From positions 160,001 to 224,000 of the forward strand of contig CAVTHS010000010.1 of the NCBI GenBank assembly GCA_963734535.1: a DNA stretch of 64,000 bases, written 5' to 3'. Of the stretch, positions 1,407 through 64,000 are shown piece after piece. The translations under genes and the position numbers were made by a program. The notes beneath the pieces were generated by a model. It was not told the origin of the DNA. It saw only the letters and a program-made list of their open reading frames with translations, and made no database searches. Position 1 is the first letter of the stretch. The number at the start of each line of letters is the position of its first letter. This DNA comes from an uncultured Chloroflexia bacterium. Lineage in GTDB: Bacteria; Chloroflexota; Limnocylindria; Limnocylindrales; CSP1-4.

Positions 1407-2621
1407 ATGTTCACACGCACCACCAGGCTCGGGTTGCTCGCCGCGACGCTCGCGATCGTCGCCTCGGCGTGCAGCGGCTCAGCCACCCCCACGCCCGCCC
1501 CGTCGGTGGCACCATCCGTCGCGCCATCGGTCGCCCCGTCCGTCGCGCCGTCGGTCGCCCCGTCCGTCGCGGCCAGCCCGTCCCCGGCGGCCTCGACCGG
1601 CGCCTCGCTCAAGATCGGTGTCGTCACCGACATCGGGACGCTCAACGACAAGAACTACAACGAGTACACCTACAAGGGCGCCTCCGAGGGTGCGGCCGCG
1701 ATCGGCGCCGCCACCCCGGCGTCCATCGTCCCGAAGGACCAGTCTGAGTACGCGGCCGACATCCAGTCGTTCGTCGACCAGAAGTACGACATCGTCGTCA
1801 CGGTCGGCTTCAACCTGACCGCCGACACCGTCAAGGCCGCCAAGGCGAACCCGACCATCAAGTTCATCGGCGTCGACCAGTCGCCGATCTGTGTCACGCC
1901 GGATGGCGCCCCGGACGACAAGTTCGAGTGCAAGGGCGATGCCAAGACCCTGCTCCCGAACTATGAGTCCATCTACTACGCCGAGGATCAGGCCGGCTAC
2001 CTCGCGGGCATCGTCGCGGCCTATGCCTCGAAGACCAACTCCATCGGCGCCATCGGCGGCACGACCCTCTGCGCCCCGTGCGTGCGCTACATCCAGGGTT
2101 ACGAGCTCGGCGCCAAGTCCGTCAAGGCCGACATCAAGGTCAAGACCGCGTACGTCACCAACGACTTCTCCGCGGCCGCCTTCAACGATCCGGCGGGCGG
2201 CAAGGCGTTCGCTCAGACGTTTATCAAGACCAACAAGCCGGACGTTCTCTTCCAGGTCGCCGGCAAGACCGGCAACGGCGTCATCGAGGCCGCCTGCGCC
2301 GCCAACATCTACGGCATCGGCGTCGACGTCGACCAGTGGGTCTCGCTCGGGGCGCCCGCCAACGCATGCGTCATCACGAGCGCCGAGAAGAAGCTCGTCG
2401 TCTCCGTCTCGGCAGCCATCCAGGCCGCCGCGGCCGGCAGCTTCCAGCCGGGCGACGTCCTCTACAACGCCGCCAATGACGGCATCGGCGTCTCGGACTT
2501 CCATGACCAGGCCAAGCTGTTCGGGCCCGAGGTGAAGACCGCGCTCGACACCGCCCTCGCGGCGATGAAGGCCGGCACCCTCAAGACCTGCCCCGACACG
2601 GGTTGCGGCGTCGCGAAGTAA
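1407..2621 (+). CDS. BMP-family (purine nucleoside) ABC transporter substrate-binding lipoprotein
   Basis: SD AAGGAGGAG before ATG 1407, lipobox IVASAC, motifs LNDKNYNE, IGVDQ, EDQAGYLAG, IGVDVDQ; followed by ATPase and two permeases. Confidence 0.9.
   Translation: MFTRTTRLGLLAATLAIVASACSGSATPTPAPSVAPSVAPSVAPSVAPSVAPSVAASPSPAASTGASLKIGVVTDIGTLNDKNYNEYTYKGASEGAAAIGAATPASIVPKDQSEYAADIQSFVDQKYDIVVTVGFNLTADTVKAAKANPTIKFIGVDQSPICVTPDGAPDDKFECKGDAKTLLPNYESIYYAEDQAGYLAGIVAAYASKTNSIGAIGGTTLCAPCVRYIQGYELGAKSVKADIKVKTAYVTNDFSAAAFNDPAGGKAFAQTFIKTNKPDVLFQVAGKTGNGVIEAACAANIYGIGVDVDQWVSLGAPANACVITSAEKKLVVSVSAAIQAAAAGSFQPGDVLYNAANDGIGVSDFHDQAKLFGPEVKTALDTALAAMKAGTLKTCPDTGCGVAK
1497..1568 (+). repeat. Six tandem 12-bp coding repeats (APSV)x6, flexible lipoprotein linker
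   Basis: Translation PAPSVAPSVAPSVAPSVAPSVAPSVAAS with synonymous codon variation. Confidence 0.85.
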
Positions 2622-49615: not shown

Positions 49616-51886
49616 TCAGTGACGGAAGTGGCGCGTCCCCGTGACGAGCATGGCCGCCCCGGATGCGTCCGCGACCGCGGTCACCTCGGCGTCCCGGAGC
49701 GAGCCACCCGGCTGGACGAAGGCGGTGACGCCCGCCGCCAGGCAGGCCTCGACCGCGTCGGGAAACGGGAAGAAGGCATCCGAGGCGACGGCGGCGCCCG
49801 CCACTCGTTCCGGCCCGAGGATCGAGCGGGCCTTCTCGACGGCCTGGCGGGCCGCGTCCACCCGGCTCGTCTGGCCCGATCCGAGGCCGATCAGCATCCC
49901 GTCGCGCACGAGGACGATGGCGTTGCTCGTGACGCCCCGGGCCAGGCGCCAGGCGAGGTCGAGGTCCGCCCGTTCGGCGTCCGTCGGAATACGGCGCGTC
50001 ACGCAGGCCCAGCCGCCCGGGTCGTCGGGGATCGTGTCCGCCGCGGTGACGAGGACTGCGCCCCCGGCCGTCCGGAAGGACCCGCGGCGCTCGGGCCAGG
50101 GCGGATCTCCCGCGACTCCCAGCCGCCGGTCGACGACAAGGCGCAGGTTGGGCCGCCGCGCCAGGACGGCGCGGGCATCGGCGTCGAAGCCGGGCGCGAC
50201 GACGATCTCCAGGAAGATGCTCGCGAGCTGCTCGGCGACGGTGCCGTCCATCTCGCGGGTCACTGCGACGACGCCCCCGAACGCGCTCACCGGGTCGGCC
50301 GCGAGCGCGTCATCCCAGGCCGCGGCGAGGCTCCCCCGCTCCGCCGCTCCGCACGGGTTCATGTGCTTGACGATGACGCAGGCGGGTCCCCGGAGCGCCC
50401 GCCCGAGCGCCGCGGCTGCCGACGCGTCGAGGATGTTGTTGTAGCTGAGCGGCTTGCCCTGCAGCGGCGCCTCGCCGGTGGCGAACGGGCCGTCCGCGTC
50501 GGTCCCACCGGGCCGCCGGTAGCGCGCCGCGGGCTGGTGCGGGTTCTCGCCGTAGCGGAGCGTCTCGACCTTCTCGAGGCCGATGACGAGCGCCTCGGGA
50601 AACGGGTCGACGCTCCGCGGGAGGCCTGGCTCGTCCGGCATCGCGATCCCCGCCCGGTCCAGCTCGCATGGCAGGACGTCGGCGATCCGCGCGTCGTACG
50701 CGGCCGTGTGCCGGAACGCCTCGACCGCGAGCGCGGCCCGCAGGCCGGCCGGGATGCCCCCGGGTACGTCGAGCGCCTCGAGGATCGCGGGGTAGCGCGC
50801 GGGCGAGGTCACGATCGCCACGTTCCGCGCGTTCTTGGCCGCCGCCCGAACCATGGACGGGCCGCCGATGTCGATCTCCTCGACGAGGCCGTCGAGGTCC
50901 AGGTCGTGGCGGGCCGCGCGCTCGGCGGCCTGGCCGAACGGATACAGGTTGACGACGACGAGCTCGAACGGCTCGATCGCCGCGGCCGCGAGCTGCCGGC
51001 GATGGTCGGGGTTCCGAGCATCGGCGAGGATCGCCGCGTGGACCCGCGGGTGGAGGGTCTTCACCCGCCCGTCGAGCATCTCCGGGAAGCCGGTGACCGC
51101 GCCGACGTCCGTGACCGGCATGCCCGCCGCGCGGAGAGCCCGCGCCGTCCCGCCCGTGCTGACCAGCTCGAAGCCGCGGCGCACGAGTCCCCGGGCGAGG
51201 TCCACCAGCCCCGCCTTGTCCGAGACCGACAGGAGGGCCCGCCGCGAGGGCGGAAGGGCCGCCTCGGCTCGGGCGGCGTCGATCGTGACGCGCCGCCCGT
51301 CCACGTCGAGCGCACCACCGAGGAGGAGCGCCACTGCTCGGGGGAGGACCCGGTGCTCCACCGCGTGGAGCCGCTCGAGAAGCGCCGCCTCGTCGTCGCC
51401 GGGCCGGACGTCGACCGCCTCCGCAAGCACGATCGGGCCTCCGTCGAGCGACGCGTCGACCAGGTGCACGGTCACGCCGGTGACCGCCGCGCCGGCCGCC
51501 AGGGCATCACGGACCGCGTGCGCGCCCGGGAAGCTCGGCAGGAGCGACGGGTGGACGTTGAGGATGCGTCCGGCGAACGCCTCCAGGAGCACTGGGCCCA
51601 CGAGACGCATGAAGCCCGCCAGGACGACCGCGTCGGTGCCCAGGGCACGAAGCGTCCCGGCGAGCGTGCGGTCAGCCGCTTCCCGCTCGGCCGGCTCGCG
51701 GGCGGCCAGGCCCGGAACCAGGGCCGTGTCGAGGCCCGCGTCTGCCGCCCACTCGAGCGCCGGGCAGGGCCGGTCGGAGAAGACGAGCACGATCCGGGCC
51801 GGGAGGGCGCCTCGCGCGATCCGGCCCTGGAGGGCTCGCAGGTTGCTGCCGCTGCCGGAGACGCCAATCGCGATCCGATCGCTCAC
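49616..51886 (-). CDS. purH: Fused PurN (GAR transformylase)-PurH (AICAR transformylase/IMP cyclohydrolase)
   Basis: N-terminal SGSGSNL, LAGFM, NVHPSLLP; from about residue 215 RALLSVSDK, GRVKTLHP, IDIGGP, LRYGENPHQ, RHFRH; single open frame. Confidence 0.92.
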   Translation of the reverse strand: MSDRIAIGVSGSGSNLRALQGRIARGALPARIVLVFSDRPCPALEWAADAGLDTALVPGLAAREPAEREAADRTLAGTLRALGTDAVVLAGFMRLVGPVLLEAFAGRILNVHPSLLPSFPGAHAVRDALAAGAAVTGVTVHLVDASLDGGPIVLAEAVDVRPGDDEAALLERLHAVEHRVLPRAVALLLGGALDVDGRRVTIDAARAEAALPPSRRALLSVSDKAGLVDLARGLVRRGFELVSTGGTARALRAAGMPVTDVGAVTGFPEMLDGRVKTLHPRVHAAILADARNPDHRRQLAAAAIEPFELVVVNLYPFGQAAERAARHDLDLDGLVEEIDIGGPSMVRAAAKNARNVAIVTSPARYPAILEALDVPGGIPAGLRAALAVEAFRHTAAYDARIADVLPCELDRAGIAMPDEPGLPRSVDPFPEALVIGLEKVETLRYGENPHQPAARYRRPGGTDADGPFATGEAPLQGKPLSYNNILDASAAAALGRALRGPACVIVKHMNPCGAAERGSLAAAWDDALAADPVSAFGGVVAVTREMDGTVAEQLASIFLEIVVAPGFDADARAVLARRPNLRLVVDRRLGVAGDPPWPERRGSFRTAGGAVLVTAADTIPDDPGGWACVTRRIPTDAERADLDLAWRLARGVTSNAIVLVRDGMLIGLGSGQTSRVDAARQAVEKARSILGPERVAGAAVASDAFFPFPDAVEACLAAGVTAFVQPGGSLRDAEVTAVADASGAAMLVTGTRHFRH

Positions 51887-60082: not shown

Positions 60083-61452
60083 CGGGCCGTCCCCGTCGTG
60101 ACGGGCACGGTCGCGCGCCGGGTCGGCGCCGCGGCTGCGATGTCGTGGCGGCGCTGGAGCCCGTCGAAGTGGATCGCGTCCACGGCGCGCTCCGCGGCGG
60201 CCCGCGCCGACGTGAGGTCCGAGCCCAGGCCCACCACCGTGAGCACGCGCCCTCCCGTCACTCGCCAAGTCCCATCGGCATCGCAGGCCGTCCCCGCGTG
60301 GAAGACACGCCCGCCGCGGGCGCTCGCCTCCGCGAGCCCCGAGATCATATCGCCCGACCGGGGTGCAGCGGGGTACCCGGCGGCCGCGACCACGATTCCG
60401 ACGGCCGCCTCCGGCGTCGACGGGAGGAGCCGGCCCGCGAGGCCGGCCTCCGCGGCGGCCGATGCCAGGCGACCCTCCGCGGCCGCAAGCAGGAGCGGCG
60501 CGAGCGGTGCCGCGCAGCGCGGCAGGATCACCTGGGATTCCGGGTCGCCGAACCGCGCGTTGCACTCGAGCAGCGCCGGGCCGTCCGCCGTCATGATCAG
60601 CCCCGCGTAGAGGGCGCCCCGGAAGGGCGCGCCGAGTCGGGCGAGCTCGGCGAGGATCGGGACGTGGAACGACTCCACGATTCCGGCCACGTCCGCATCG
60701 GGCAGATCCGGGAGCGGGCTGTACGCCCCCATCCCGCCGGTGTTCGGCCCCGTGTCGCCGTCCGCGAGCCGCTTGTGATCGCGGGCGGCGGGCAGGGCAA
60801 GGGCCGCCGTCTCGTCCGCCAGCACGATGACGCTCGCTTCCGGCCCGCGAAGGCGCTCCTCCACCACGACGCGCGGGACCCCTGGCGCCTCCCGGCCGGC
60901 GTCGAGGAGGATCGCGTCGAGGGCCGCCGTTGCCTCGTCGAGCGTGTCGCAGACGGTGACGCCCTTGCCCGCGGCGAGGCCGTCCGCCTTGACCACGATC
61001 CCGCGCCCGGCGGCATCGAGGGCGGCCGCGAAGGCCACCGCGGGGCCGAGCGCGGCGAATGCGCCGGCCTGCGCCATCCGCACCCCGGCAGCGTCCGCCA
61101 CCGCGTGACAGAAGGCCTTCGAGCTCTCGATCCGGGCCGCAGCCGCGGTCGGGCCGAACGTCGGGATCCCGGCAGCCACGAGCGCATCTGCCACGCCTGC
61201 GGCAAGCGGCGCCTCGGGGCCGACCACCGCGAGGTCCACGCGCGCCGTGATGGCGGCTGTCACCACGGCGGCAGGATCGAGCGGATCACCGGCTACGATC
61301 GATACGCCGGAAACGCTCGCGATCCCGTCGCTGCCGGGGAACGCGACGATCGACTCGACCCCGGGCTCCCCGGCGAGCTGGACGGCAAGCGCATGCTCGC
61401 GGCCGCCCCCGCCGACCAGCAGGATCCGGCGTGGCGTGCGCGCGGGGCCCAT
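60079..61452 (-). CDS. purD: Phosphoribosylamine-glycine ligase
   Basis: GGGGREHA, KADGLAAGKGV, GPNTGGMG, RFGDPE. Confidence 0.96.
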   Translation of the reverse strand: MGPARTPRRILLVGGGGREHALAVQLAGEPGVESIVAFPGSDGIASVSGVSIVAGDPLDPAAVVTAAITARVDLAVVGPEAPLAAGVADALVAAGIPTFGPTAAAARIESSKAFCHAVADAAGVRMAQAGAFAALGPAVAFAAALDAAGRGIVVKADGLAAGKGVTVCDTLDEATAALDAILLDAGREAPGVPRVVVEERLRGPEASVIVLADETAALALPAARDHKRLADGDTGPNTGGMGAYSPLPDLPDADVAGIVESFHVPILAELARLGAPFRGALYAGLIMTADGPALLECNARFGDPESQVILPRCAAPLAPLLLAAAEGRLASAAAEAGLAGRLLPSTPEAAVGIVVAAAGYPAAPRSGDMISGLAEASARGGRVFHAGTACDADGTWRVTGGRVLTVVGLGSDLTSARAAAERAVDAIHFDGLQRRHDIAAAAPTRRATVPVTTGTAR

Positions 61453-62756
61453 CAGGCCCGGCCGGCCGCGAGCGGGCGGTCGTCGAGCATCACCGTCTGG
61501 GTCCGCTCGGGCCCGACGGAGACGAGCGTGATCGGGACGCCGGCCAGCGCGGCGAGCGCTGCGACATAGGCCCGTGCGTTCGGCGGGAGGTCATCGGGTG
61601 TGCGGGCCGCGTGGATCTCCTCGTGCCAGCCCGCGAACGTCTCGTAGACCGGCACCGCGCGGGCCACCTCCTCGGCCGAGGCGGGCCAGCGCTCGACGCG
61701 CCGGCCGTCGATGTCGTAGGCGACGCAGAGACGGATCTCGTCGATTCCGGAGAGGATGTCCAGCTTGTTGAGGATGATGCTGCTGACGCTGTTGACATCG
61801 ACCGCGTACCGGAGCGGGACCGCGTCGAACCACCCGACGCGCCGGCGCCGGCCGGTTGTCGTCCCGAACTCGTGGCCCCGCATGGCGATCCCCTCGCCGA
61901 CGGCGTCGAGGAGCTCGGTCGGGTACGGGCCGGCGCCCACCCGCGTCGTGTAGGCCTTCATGATGCCGATCACCGCCGAGACCTGGAGCGGGCCGACGCC
62001 CCCGCCAGTGCAGGCGCCCCCGGCGACCGGGTTTGACGACGTCACGAACGGGTAGGACCCATGGTCGAGGTCGAGCAGCGTTCCCTGCGCGCCCTCGAGG
62101 AGCACGTGGTCGCCGGCCCGGAGCGCGTCCTGCACGAGCGTCGTCGTGTCCGCGATCTGCCCGCGGAGGCGCACGCCCCAGCTGAGGCCGGCCTCGACCA
62201 GCGCCTCGACGGCGAACGGGCGGCCCTTCTCACCGAGCTGGGCAAGCCAGGCGTTCTTGTCGGGGACGAGGCGCTCGAGCTTGCGCCGGAGCGCGGGCTC
62301 GTCGAGGAGGTCCTCCATCCGGAGCCCGACCCGGGAGGCCCGGTCCGCGTATGCCGGACCGATTCCACGATTCGTCGTGCCGATCCCGTCGCGGCCGAGG
62401 CGCGCCTCGGAGGCTCGGTCCTCCGCAACGTGGTAGGGCATGATCACGTGGCAGGCGTGCGAGACGCGGACGCGGCTCGTATCCACGCCCCGCGCCGTGA
62501 GGGCGTCGAGCTCGCCGATCAGGGTGGCCGGGTTGACGACGACCCCCGGGCCGATCAGCGGCACGATGTGGGGGTAGAGCACGCCACTCGGCACGAGGTG
62601 GAGCTTGAAGACCTCCGAGCCCAGCACGATCGTGTGGCCCGCGTTGTCGCCGCCCTGGTAGCGGACGACCCAGCTGACCTGCCCGGACAGGAAGTCGGTT
62701 GCCTTGCCCTTCCCCTCGTCGCCCCACTGGAGGCCGACGATCACCGTGGCCGGCAT
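61452..62756 (-). CDS. purA: Adenylosuccinate synthetase
   Basis: QWGDEGKG, GGDNAGH, EGAQG, YPFVTSS, EFGTTTGR. Confidence 0.97.
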   Translation of the reverse strand: MPATVIVGLQWGDEGKGKATDFLSGQVSWVVRYQGGDNAGHTIVLGSEVFKLHLVPSGVLYPHIVPLIGPGVVVNPATLIGELDALTARGVDTSRVRVSHACHVIMPYHVAEDRASEARLGRDGIGTTNRGIGPAYADRASRVGLRMEDLLDEPALRRKLERLVPDKNAWLAQLGEKGRPFAVEALVEAGLSWGVRLRGQIADTTTLVQDALRAGDHVLLEGAQGTLLDLDHGSYPFVTSSNPVAGGACTGGGVGPLQVSAVIGIMKAYTTRVGAGPYPTELLDAVGEGIAMRGHEFGTTTGRRRRVGWFDAVPLRYAVDVNSVSSIILNKLDILSGIDEIRLCVAYDIDGRRVERWPASAEEVARAVPVYETFAGWHEEIHAARTPDDLPPNARAYVAALAALAGVPITLVSVGPERTQTVMLDDRPLAAGRA

Positions 62757-62787
62757 GGCTGCTCCCCCGCGGAACCGGCCTTCGGGC

Positions 62788-62823
62788 AACAAAAAAGGCC
62801 CTCGGCGCGCGCGCCGGGGACCT
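62788..62823 (-). terminator. Intrinsic terminator inside the purA 5' leader (attenuator)
   Basis: Minus-strand AGGUCCCCGGCG-cgcg-CGCCGAGGGCCU followed by UUUUUGUU, about 30 nt before the purA ATG. Confidence 0.8.
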
Positions 62824-62892
62824 GCCGGGTAGCCCCTCCCGCCCGGACGGCACCGCAGGCGCGGTGCCCGGCAGGGCACGAAGCCACTCGGA

Positions 62893-62925
62893 TCATGGGG
62901 TGACCGAGATGCCAGCCTCGGACAA
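62893..62925 (-). CDS. Candidate leader peptide MSEAGISVTP upstream of the purine operon
   Basis: SD AAGGAG (62938-62933), 7-nt spacer, TTG start, TGA stop; no direct evidence of translation. Confidence 0.4.
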   Translation of the reverse strand: MSEAGISVTP

Positions 62926-62976
62926 TCGCTCGCTCCTTCGGGGGGGCCGGACGGCCCACGGCGTCGGGACCCGGGG

Positions 62977-62985
62977 AGTATACCA
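62977..62985 (-). promoter_or_regulatory. Extended -10 promoter of the purine operon
   Basis: TGgTATACT, conspicuous in a very GC-rich background. Confidence 0.7.
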
Positions 62986-63206
62986 GCCGGCGTCCGGGGC
63001 ACCCAGGGTCCTCTCGCCCGCAGCGTCCGTTTGGGTCCCCGGGTCCGGCGGCGCGCGGCTTCCGCCGGTGCCTCCGCACGTGCCTCGCCCGGCCTGTGGC
63101 CTCTTGGCGGGTGCCTGGGCCGGCGGCCGCGACCGGGACTTCCGGCGCCCGGCGGAGTACCTTCGGTACGGGCGATTCGGCCTGTCCCGAGGGCTACGGT
63201 AGCAGG

Positions 63207-64000
63207 GTGATACGCGCCCTCAGCGGGTTGGGGTTGCTGGCTCCAATTGCCTTCCTGGCCCTTGCGCTCCTTCTGAGCCCCGGGGGTCCCTTCCTGACGG
63301 CTGGCCCCGCGGCGGTTGTCCTCGTGGCTGCGGCCGTCCTCGGCGCCAGCGTCACCGCGGCGATCGCGAGCATCTGGATCCGGGCGCACGTGATCCCGGT
63401 CGTGAACGCAGCGGAACGCCTCGCGGCGGGCGAGCTCACGACCCTCGTGCCGGCGCAGAACAGCGGCCTCGACGGCAGGCTGGGGCGTGCCGTCGCCCAG
63501 CTCGGCGCAACCCTCGCGACGACGCATGATGCGGCAACCGTCGACCGCCTGACCGGGATCGCCAATCGCCCGGCCCTCCTCGGCATGCTCTTCGGGGAGG
63601 TCGAGCGGGGGGCGCGCTACAACAGGCCGCTCTCCGTTGGCTTCGTCGACATCGACCTCTTCAAGGTGGTCAACGACTCCCACGGCCACCACGCGGGCGA
63701 CCTCGTCCTCCGGGGCGTGGCCGACGTGCTGCGGACGAACCTCCGCGCCACCGACATGCTCGGCCGGTATGGTGGCGAGGAGTTCATGCTCATCCTCCCC
63801 GAGACCGACGTGGAGGATGCCGCCTCGCTCTCCGAGAAGCTGCGCCTCCTCGTCGGGGGCACGCACTTCAGGATCGACGATGACCTGACCGTGGACGTGA
63901 CCGTGTCGATCGGGGTCGCCGGCGGAGTGGGGGGCAACCTCCACATCGACGAGCTCGTCCGGGACGCGGACGCCGCGATGTACTCGGCGAAGTCGCTCGG
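63207..64000 (+). CDS. Membrane HAMP-GGDEF diguanylate cyclase (runs off the window)
   Basis: Manual translation from GTG 63207: two hydrophobic segments, HAMP-like helix pair, DRLTGIANR, DIDLFKVVND, RYGGEEF, ADAAMY; absent from the ORF track because no stop lies in the window. Confidence 0.88.
   Translation, partial: MIRALSGLGLLAPIAFLALALLLSPGGPFLTAGPAAVVLVAAAVLGASVTAAIASIWIRAHVIPVVNAAERLAAGELTTLVPAQNSGLDGRLGRAVAQLGATLATTHDAATVDRLTGIANRPALLGMLFGEVERGARYNRPLSVGFVDIDLFKVVNDSHGHHAGDLVLRGVADVLRTNLRATDMLGRYGGEEFMLILPETDVEDAASLSEKLRLLVGGTHFRIDDDLTVDVTVSIGVAGGVGGNLHIDELVRDADAAMYSAKSL

Follow-up and report, generated by a model that had tools for sequence, protein, structure and literature searches.

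The window analysed here is a stretch of 64,000 nucleotides (nt) from a contig of an uncultured Chloroflexia bacterium (CAVTHS010000010.1, positions 160,001 to 224,000), and the subject of this work is a leader of about 190 nt which lies on its minus strand directly upstream of purA, the gene for adenylosuccinate synthetase. After purA, on the same strand and tightly packed, Pfam domains and gene order give the row purD-purB-purC-purQ-purL-purF-purM-purN/H. A preliminary description made from the letters of this DNA had placed a candidate attenuator at the head of the whole purine operon, and at the level of gene order this is borne out, purA being the first gene of the row. The leader lies inside a gap of 339 nt that separates the purA ATG from a divergent gene on the plus strand which encodes a GGDEF domain, and because this next gene upstream is divergent, the terminator in the leader is not a property of an upstream gene.

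Every feature that the preliminary description named is present in the window where it was placed, and its picture of a promoter-proximal leader with a Shine-Dalgarno (SD) sequence, a short upstream open reading frame (uORF), nested hairpins and an intrinsic terminator is supported by the analysis below. In the order of transcription, with coordinates counted in the window, the features are these.

62977..62985, minus strand: extended -10 box TGGTATACT, from the sequence
62953..62971, minus strand: 5' terminal hairpin GGUCCC / GGGCC, from predicted folds
62933..62938, minus strand: SD-like AAGGAG, 7 nt before the uORF start
62893..62925, minus strand: uORF of 10 codons, from TTG (62925-62923) to CCA TGA (62895-62893), peptide MSEAGISVTP
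62880..62919, minus strand: hairpin H1/H2, from per-sequence folds; its 5' arm is uORF codons 3-8, and the stop codon lies in its loop and 3' arm
62919-62915 with 62884-62880, minus strand: helix H1, GAGGC with GCUUC
62908-62904 with 62891-62887, minus strand: helix H2, CUCGG with CCGAG
62849..62868, minus strand: hairpin H4, 8 base pairs (bp), GGCACCGC GCCU GCGGUGCC, within the C-rich/G-rich helix H3
62844-62833, minus strand: conserved purine-rich run GGGCGGGAGGGG
within 62823..62844, minus strand: linker CUACCCGGCA, family consensus GUCUAYCCAGG
62822-62797, minus strand: intrinsic terminator hairpin GGUCC-C-CGGCG / CGCCG-A-GGGCC, with a C.A mismatch
62796-62787, minus strand: terminator tail UUUUUUGUUG, directly after the hairpin
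62768-62762, minus strand: GGGGGAG, the SD sequence of purA itself
61452..62756, minus strand: purA, start ATG at 62756 (Pfam Adenylsucc_synt, E 4.9e-167)

Conservation and distribution of the leader

In 17 genus-mates about 190 nt are conserved, from the -10 box to the U tract of the terminator, and the sequence upstream of the box is unrelated. A search that used a hairpin pattern first and then a covariance model, and that extended the set beyond the genus-mates, produced 83 non-identical leaders, two of which are cut at contig ends, leaving 81 full ones. Leaders, genomes, genera and families are denoted here by L, G, g and f numbers. The set spans at least 15 genera of one Limnocylindria family (f1) and one genome of a second family (f4), and the genera in which the leader was recovered beyond the genus-mates include g7, g8, g10, g11, g23, g24, g26, g27, g38, g40, g42, g45 and g49. 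True leaders always stand directly upstream of purA, in one copy per genome; hairpin-pattern matches elsewhere fall within coding sequence and have no U tract. Of 22 matches examined outside g1, g10, g40 and g42, 20 precede purA and two are weak and terminator-like. The candidates L227 and L228 (genomes G454 and G460, family f4) were rejected as leaders, consisting of a GC-rich hairpin and T tract after a gene end, followed by a TATCAT box and with no purA, which is the pattern of an ordinary terminator and promoter.

When the genome from which the window comes was searched with the covariance model R1, described below, this site alone was matched (E 4.2e-6; the next value was 0.15). In a class-level sample, matches were obtained in 33 of 44 genomes of f1, 0 of 6 of f2, 0 of 49 of f3 and 3 of 50 of f4, counts which refer to samples of incomplete metagenome-assembled genomes, so that a zero means that the leader was not found in those searched. 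Eleven purA upstream regions of the sister family f2 carry a different, short leader.

The folding energy of the whole leader is no better than that of shuffled sequences (z +0.86, in RNA of 72-76% G+C), and the mean z values of the hairpin domains are weak (-0.81 for H1/H2 and -1.16 for H3/H4). Folding energy alone therefore does not distinguish the leader from chance; what does so is the conservation of the same layout before purA in 81 leaders, and on these comparative grounds the leader is judged to be a real element. The preliminary description is in this respect upheld, the leader being conserved in relatives.

The promoter shares in this conservation. A TATACT-like box is found in 80 of the 83 leaders (exactly TATACT in 69), and in 74 of the 80 box-bearing leaders TG stands two bases upstream of it. 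The base 7 nt past the box is G in 51/80, with GTCC beginning there in 44/80, and we infer that transcription of the window's leader starts about 7 nt downstream of the -10 box, at G 62970. A simple terminator and promoter scan of 61000-64000 detected nothing. Contigs from two RNA libraries, derived from relatives 89-95% identical to the window, span purA, the terminator and the leader (62253-62943 and 62628-62878), and none of them reaches upstream of 62943, whereas a DNA contig continues. These contigs, which reveal neither transcript ends nor strand and could include DNA carry-over, give a weak hint that would agree with transcription from a start close to the predicted one and past the terminator.

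Covariation in the terminator-formed fold

Model R1 was built from 22 leaders of genus g10 with five hand-placed helices (H1, H2, H3, H4 and the terminator, 34 pairs in all), and 78 matches were aligned to it. In this model-fitted alignment of related sequences, standard pairs occupy 88.7% of cells, compared with 74.5% when partners are shuffled; 33 of the 34 pairs change on both sides, compared with 10-16 when the partner is slid by 1-3 columns; and there are 283 compensatory cells, compared with 23-50 in the slid controls. A 58-sequence version gave the same picture. Of the two kinds of control, sliding the partner is the fairer. The covariation supports the terminator-formed (OFF) conformation, in which the leader folds into three successive stem-loop domains.

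In the first domain, the H1 and H2 helices pair in 78-97% of cells and all of their pairs change on both sides, one H2 pair occurring, for example, as UA in 23 leaders, CG in 21, UG in 10 and GC in 7. In the second domain, H4 pairs in 95.3% of cells (one pair is CG in 32 leaders and AU in 23), and H3, which pairs in 75.1%, encloses H4 in all groups but with shifting registers; the sequence of H4 and of the H3 internal loops varies freely. The preliminary description had an outer helix, GUGGCUUC (62887-62880) with GGGGCUAC (62836-62829), enclosing the 8-bp hairpin. This helix can pair in the window and a helix at this position does exist, but the register proposed for it pairs in only 52% of cells in a structure-blind alignment of the 17 genus-mates and was rejected, the relatives using other registers.

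The third domain, the terminator, has a stem that is paired in 96.4% of cells, with 9 of its 10 pairs changing on both sides across genera; an inner pair is GC, GU and AU in 64, 7 and 7 leaders, and in distant genera the two arms change together (GAACCCCGG/CCGGGGUUC, GGUCUCGA/UCGAGGCC, AGUCCCUGA/UCAGGGGCU and GCCCACGGC/GCCGUGGGC). At least 5 U are present in the 8 nt past the hairpin in 74/76 leaders, the C.A mismatch is present in 55/76, and the median energy is -17.3 kcal/mol. The hairpin is more stable than its shuffled versions (mean z -2.6; 31 of 34 below -1.5). In the window purA begins 40 nt past the terminator, and among the first 63 leaders the spacer between the two is 23-145 nt long and unconserved. 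In two species of genus g1, represented by leaders L005 and L007, the terminator stem is weakened (-9 kcal/mol, z about 0) and no U tract follows it, the remaining leader and the uORF being intact; model R1 missed both at E 0.01.

Since covariation supports no conformation other than the terminator-formed fold, it must be asked whether the leader senses anything at all. It could instead be a gene for a small peptide or small RNA with a leaky terminator, or a constitutive partial terminator which sets the level of purA, and the degenerate terminators of L005 and L007, together with other leaders that have no uORF start, indicate that each part can be lost, as such a device would allow. Neither device, however, would require about 190 nt of conserved sequence, with two conserved hairpin domains and a linker that stays invariant, to be maintained in 15 or more genera, and the unconserved sequence of the peptide argues against a functional small protein. 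A leader without a sensor is for these reasons considered very unlikely.

The linker, which adjoins the terminator, is among the most conserved unpaired stretches of the leader, and its conservation bears on a further alternative, protein-dependent antitermination or termination, in which a purine-responsive RNA-binding protein would recognize about 30 nt made up of the near-invariant purine run, linker and terminator 5' arm, in the general manner of the ribonucleic antiterminator (RAT) sites of sugar operons or of PyrR sites, with the similar GGUCC motif at the 5' end as a possible second site. What is conserved here is sequence rather than pairing, the linker and the outer terminator stem being almost invariant while the purA proteins are only about 70% identical across genera, and in many genera the 5' end of the transcript repeats the motif of the terminator 5' arm (the GTCC at the predicted start in 44/80). 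Against a protein site, the terminator arms in g8, g11, g38 and f4 vary and covary like those of an ordinary terminator, the PyrR RNA family RF00515 matches neither the genome nor the leaders, and no gene for a candidate protein was found, no systematic search having been made. This explanation is considered rather improbable.

The upstream open reading frame

In a 75-row alignment the GGAG of the SD sequence is conserved at 95% or more, and it is retained also in leaders that lack the start codon of the uORF. A scripted call, which demanded an SD sequence, a TTG or GTG start, 6-14 codons and a stop, was applied to the 81 full leaders and was positive in 64, to which three (L139, L167 and L208) were added by reading, for a total of 67/81. 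Among the 64 scripted uORFs, 59 have exactly 10 codons, 61 start with TTG and 3 with GTG, and 63 stop at TGA. The switch from TTG to GTG has taken place in three separate genera (L064, L077 and L224), and the length variants step by whole codons (8, 9 or 11) with the TGA kept in frame, the exception being L080, in which the TGA is out of frame and the uORF ends at a TAG after 12 codons. In seven leaders of genus g1 TCG stands in place of TTG, and in five of these the in-frame TGA is also gone. The start switching, the whole-codon lengths and the joint loss of start and stop suggest that the uORF is translated.

Two variants of the reading frames near purA may be recorded here. The most distant leader, L216 (genome G514, family f4), has a frame of 46 codons with no early stop, which crosses the hairpins and the terminator and ends only at a TGA that shares bases with the purA ATG (TGATG). 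This geometry is pyrBI-like, but as a single example in G+C-rich sequence it could be due to chance. In L210, L213 and L214 (g7) and in L209 and L212 (g8), a second short frame, whose start is an ATG or GTG in or beside the U tract of the terminator, extends to a TGA that overlaps the ATG of purA. This frame is found in 3/3 leaders of g7 and 2/5 of g8, the sequence CTGATG at the purA start recurs in other genera, and the arrangement may reflect translational coupling.

Known RNA families and attenuation systems

Purine operons are controlled by repressors (PurR) and by riboswitches for guanine, for ZTP (a 5-aminoimidazole-4-carboxamide ribonucleotide, as is ZMP) and for phosphoribosyl pyrophosphate (PRPP). 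The preliminary description had recognized none of the known aptamers in the leader, and scans with Rfam 15 agree with it, giving chance-level hits only and no relevant match for the window (E up to 10) or for ten related loci (E up to 1). Across the genome, no match was found for the purine riboswitch RF00167 or for the PyrR site RF00515, and none above the cut-off for the ZMP-ZTP riboswitch RF01750; for the PRPP subtype of ykkC, which was covered by the all-Rfam scans of the leader only, there was no match on the leader. A full-text literature search, judged by titles and abstracts, found no leader peptide or attenuator of a purine operon. The leader resembles RF00167, RF01750 and the PRPP/ykkC riboswitches in being a cis-acting leader with a terminator before purine biosynthesis genes, and differs from them in matching none of these families. 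PyrR-dependent attenuation of pyr operons (RF00515) likewise combines a nucleotide-operon leader with a terminator, and the conserved loop of its first hairpin may be a further resemblance, but the purA leader has no RF00515 match.

The closest comparison among attenuators is with pyrBI (and pyrE) of Escherichia coli, in which a leader ORF is combined with polymerase pausing that is sensitive to nucleoside triphosphates, and in which the pyrBI leader ORF runs through the terminator, so that the ribosome blocks the hairpin directly. Like pyrBI, the present system has a nucleotide-synthesis operon, a leader ORF (here predicted), an intrinsic terminator and, before the terminator, a run of the operon's own class of nucleotide (here purines), and it needs no regulatory amino-acid codons. 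Unlike that of pyrBI, the ORF of the purA leader has 10 codons and stops about 70 nt upstream of the terminator; only the f4 leader L216 reads through it.

With the trp, his, leu and thr attenuators the purA leader shares the succession of promoter, SD sequence, short ORF, hairpin at the ORF end, further hairpins, terminator and first gene, and its segments that resemble both terminator arms are the product expected of the 1:2 / 2:3 / 3:4 design of trp-type attenuators. It differs from these in having no runs of regulatory codons, an unconserved peptide and an ORF that has been lost in 10/81 leaders, as well as in its extra hairpin domain between the ORF hairpin and the terminator and in the absence of a demonstrated antiterminator. 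The individual parts of the leader are of known kinds. What is new is that they are combined before a purine operon, with a relay of two hairpin domains and an invariant linker, and that no catalogued family matches.

Proposed ribosome-coupled attenuation and the evidence bearing on it

The reading that we tentatively favour, at slightly less than even confidence, is that the leader is a ribosome-coupled transcription attenuator of the purine operon. According to this proposal, transcription would begin a few bases past the extended -10 box, and by default the RNA would fold into H1/H2 around the end of the uORF, then H3/H4 and then the terminator, so that transcription would stop 40 nt before purA. 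What is established of this is the promoter-proximal position of the leader and a default fold that closes with an intrinsic terminator immediately ahead of an essential operon. Because there is no room for a second promoter, the expression of purA and of the downstream pur genes must come from read-through, and the level of read-through would be set by the ribosome translating the mini-ORF. A ribosome on the uORF and its stop codon would keep H1/H2 from forming, and the opening of H1/H2 would alter the partners available to the G-rich run and to the C-rich terminator 5' arm as RNA polymerase arrives. The likely signal would be the supply of purine nucleotides, acting through the relative speed of the ribosome and of the polymerase, which meets a purine-rich run before the terminator.

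A broader statement can be made with somewhat more assurance, to the extent that we lean towards it: that the purine operon is under the control of a translated mini-ORF and a terminator which sense purine nucleotides through the kinetics of transcription and translation and not through an amino acid, as a purine counterpart of pyrBI with a relay formed by the ORF hairpin, the second hairpin domain and the invariant linker, or else under the control of an undescribed class of riboswitch for a metabolite of the purine pathway. If the mini-ORF form of this statement is true, no earlier attenuator would be known to govern a complete de novo purine operon in this way, and the leader would be the first.

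Several observations weigh against ribosome-coupled attenuation, and the first group of them concerns the uORF. Of what the preliminary description said of the uORF, the SD sequence and reading frame recur, conserved in position, in 67/81 leaders, but the requirement for its translation is weakened: in 10/81 leaders TCG replaces the start codon and no other start is present, and in four more the ORF is altered (in L219 and L220 a GTG in the same frame follows two codons downstream, at a long distance from the SD sequence; in L223 there is an ATG upstream; and the fourth is L216). The start losses fall in at least two clades, g11 together with g26 and part of g1, on a 130-residue purA tree of weak resolution. 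Apart from the start codon, these leaders retain the other parts (SD-like GGAG, hairpins, linker and terminator), and since the start codon can be lost while the rest is kept, translation of the uORF is not required for maintenance of the leader or for viability. The start-less leaders of g1, moreover, have no room for a second promoter before purA, so that read-through must be sufficient there even when the uORF is not translated. The loss of the start codon fits a modulating or termination-promoting role of the ribosome better than a trp-like requirement for it.

The content and position of the uORF add to these difficulties. The peptides are unconserved (MSEAGISVTP, MPQEGVLFAP, MLEEGAWLVP and others), and they contain no codon runs tied to purine synthesis. 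The third codon positions of the uORF vary less (0.68 bits) than the first (1.02) and second (0.99), and constraint at the level of the RNA therefore dominates in this segment. About 70 nt separate the stop codon of the uORF from the terminator, both in the window and in the 67 leaders that bear a uORF, and this distance keeps a ribosome from masking the terminator directly; the exception in geometry, and perhaps in masking, is L216. It must also be borne in mind that the covariation counts given above rest on a model-fitted alignment and on related sequences that are not independent.

The second group of observations concerns the conformation that would permit read-through, for which no antiterminator has been established: three candidates were tested, complementarity was present in each, and none rose above controls. 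The antiterminator of the preliminary description, CCUGCCGGG (62875-62867) with CCCGGCAGG (62829-62821), is an exact reverse complement of 9 nt in the window, but it is not conserved, pairing in 49% of cells and showing no covariation in the structure-blind MAFFT alignment of the 17 genus-mates. In the second candidate the 5' region, which nearly copies the 3' arm of the terminator, would form a long-range helix with the linker and the 5' arm. Tested in 27 representatives against 200 dinucleotide shuffles of the 5' region, this duplex is only weakly better (mean z -0.54), and g40, L080 and L062 lack it. In the third, the G run could pair with the 5' arm of the terminator in 85.6% of cells, which is no better than the shuffled and slid controls.

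When transcripts cut before the terminator 3' arm are folded with RNAfold, the terminator 5' arm often pairs with the 5' end of the leader, and in the alignments each arm of the 5' terminal hairpin resembles its counterpart in the terminator, the 3' arm of that hairpin being CGCCGUGGGCC. The 5' end shares motifs of the GGUCC type with the 5' arm of the terminator, and motifs of the CCGAGG type are common to the terminator 3' arm and to either the 5' region or uORF codons 2-4. Such repeated motif classes would look like an attenuator with exchangeable strands, yet in RNA of 72-76% G+C they are inseparable from chance. A scan of all pairs of alignment columns gave no further covarying pairs beyond those confounded with lineage.

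Two further sets of pairings were rejected as general features. In some genera, but not in others, the alignments show that GGGGCAG could pair with the region of the uORF start, and the GUCU of the linker with the UGA loop. A pairing of the 5' end GUCCUCGA with uORF codons 2-4 (CUCGAGGA) is absent in g1, g10, g42 and g7. In L209, L212, L215 and L224 (g8), L217, L218 and L222 (g38), L074 and L075 (g40) and L207 (g27), the two segments are complementary over 6-8 bp and enclose the SD sequence and the start codon; in g11 and g26, where the start codon is lost, the sequence of codons 2-4 is likewise unconserved.

The same start-less leaders raise the possibility of a new riboswitch, whose aptamer would consist of the H1/H2 and H3/H4 stems together with the conserved loop around the UGA, the purine-rich run and the invariant linker. 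Capture of the terminator 5' arm would then depend on a ligand from the purine pathway, such as PRPP, ZMP or a purine base or nucleotide, and the uORF would be secondary or a later addition. That the ten leaders without a start keep the GGAG, the hairpins, the linker and the terminator (those of g11 and g26 also the CCG-UGA loop) is as this explanation would have it, as is the concentration of the most conserved unpaired bases in the linker adjoining the terminator, and the finding of no purine or ZTP riboswitch above the cut-off in the genome makes another purine sensor plausible. An aptamer would have no need, however, of the SD sequence, start, 10 codons and stop that are kept in 67/81 leaders with switching of the start codon, and the freely varying H4 and H3 internal loops are unlike a ligand pocket. 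The riboswitch explanation also has against it that no Rfam family is matched and that no read-through conformation is backed by covariation, and it is on balance held to be unlikely, though deserving of attention.

The leader probably acts as a switch on purine synthesis. If ribosome-coupled attenuation is correct and purine nucleotides are sensed through the coupling of ribosome and polymerase, the leader would supply, for purines, the counterpart of a mechanism so far known for pyrimidines only; if the sensor is instead a ligand or a protein, it would represent a new RNA class. An element of 190 nt with natural variants in which the start is lost, the terminator is degenerate or the ORF runs through the terminator makes the question directly testable. 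The leader also adds to the regulatory repertoire of an abundant, uncultured lineage of soil and peat Chloroflexota.

Neighbouring genes and other observations

The divergent neighbour of the leader is the gene for a GGDEF protein (diguanylate cyclase) at window positions 63096-63998 on the plus strand, and because the sequence upstream of the -10 box is unconserved between genus-mates, this gene is probably outside the unit. At the far end of the purine gene row, a single frame of 756 residues (window 49616-51886, minus strand) carries the domains Formyl_trans_N (PurN), MGS and AICARFT_IMPCHas (PurH), and appears to be a purN-purH fusion. In one leader-bearing contig of genus g40 (L074, positions 1865-1977, plus strand), the Rfam scan detected an S-adenosylmethionine (SAM) riboswitch (RF00162, 67.5 bits, E 7e-14). 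About 230 nt separate it from the purA leader, upstream of which it lies; because it is on the opposite strand to that leader, it reads away from purA.

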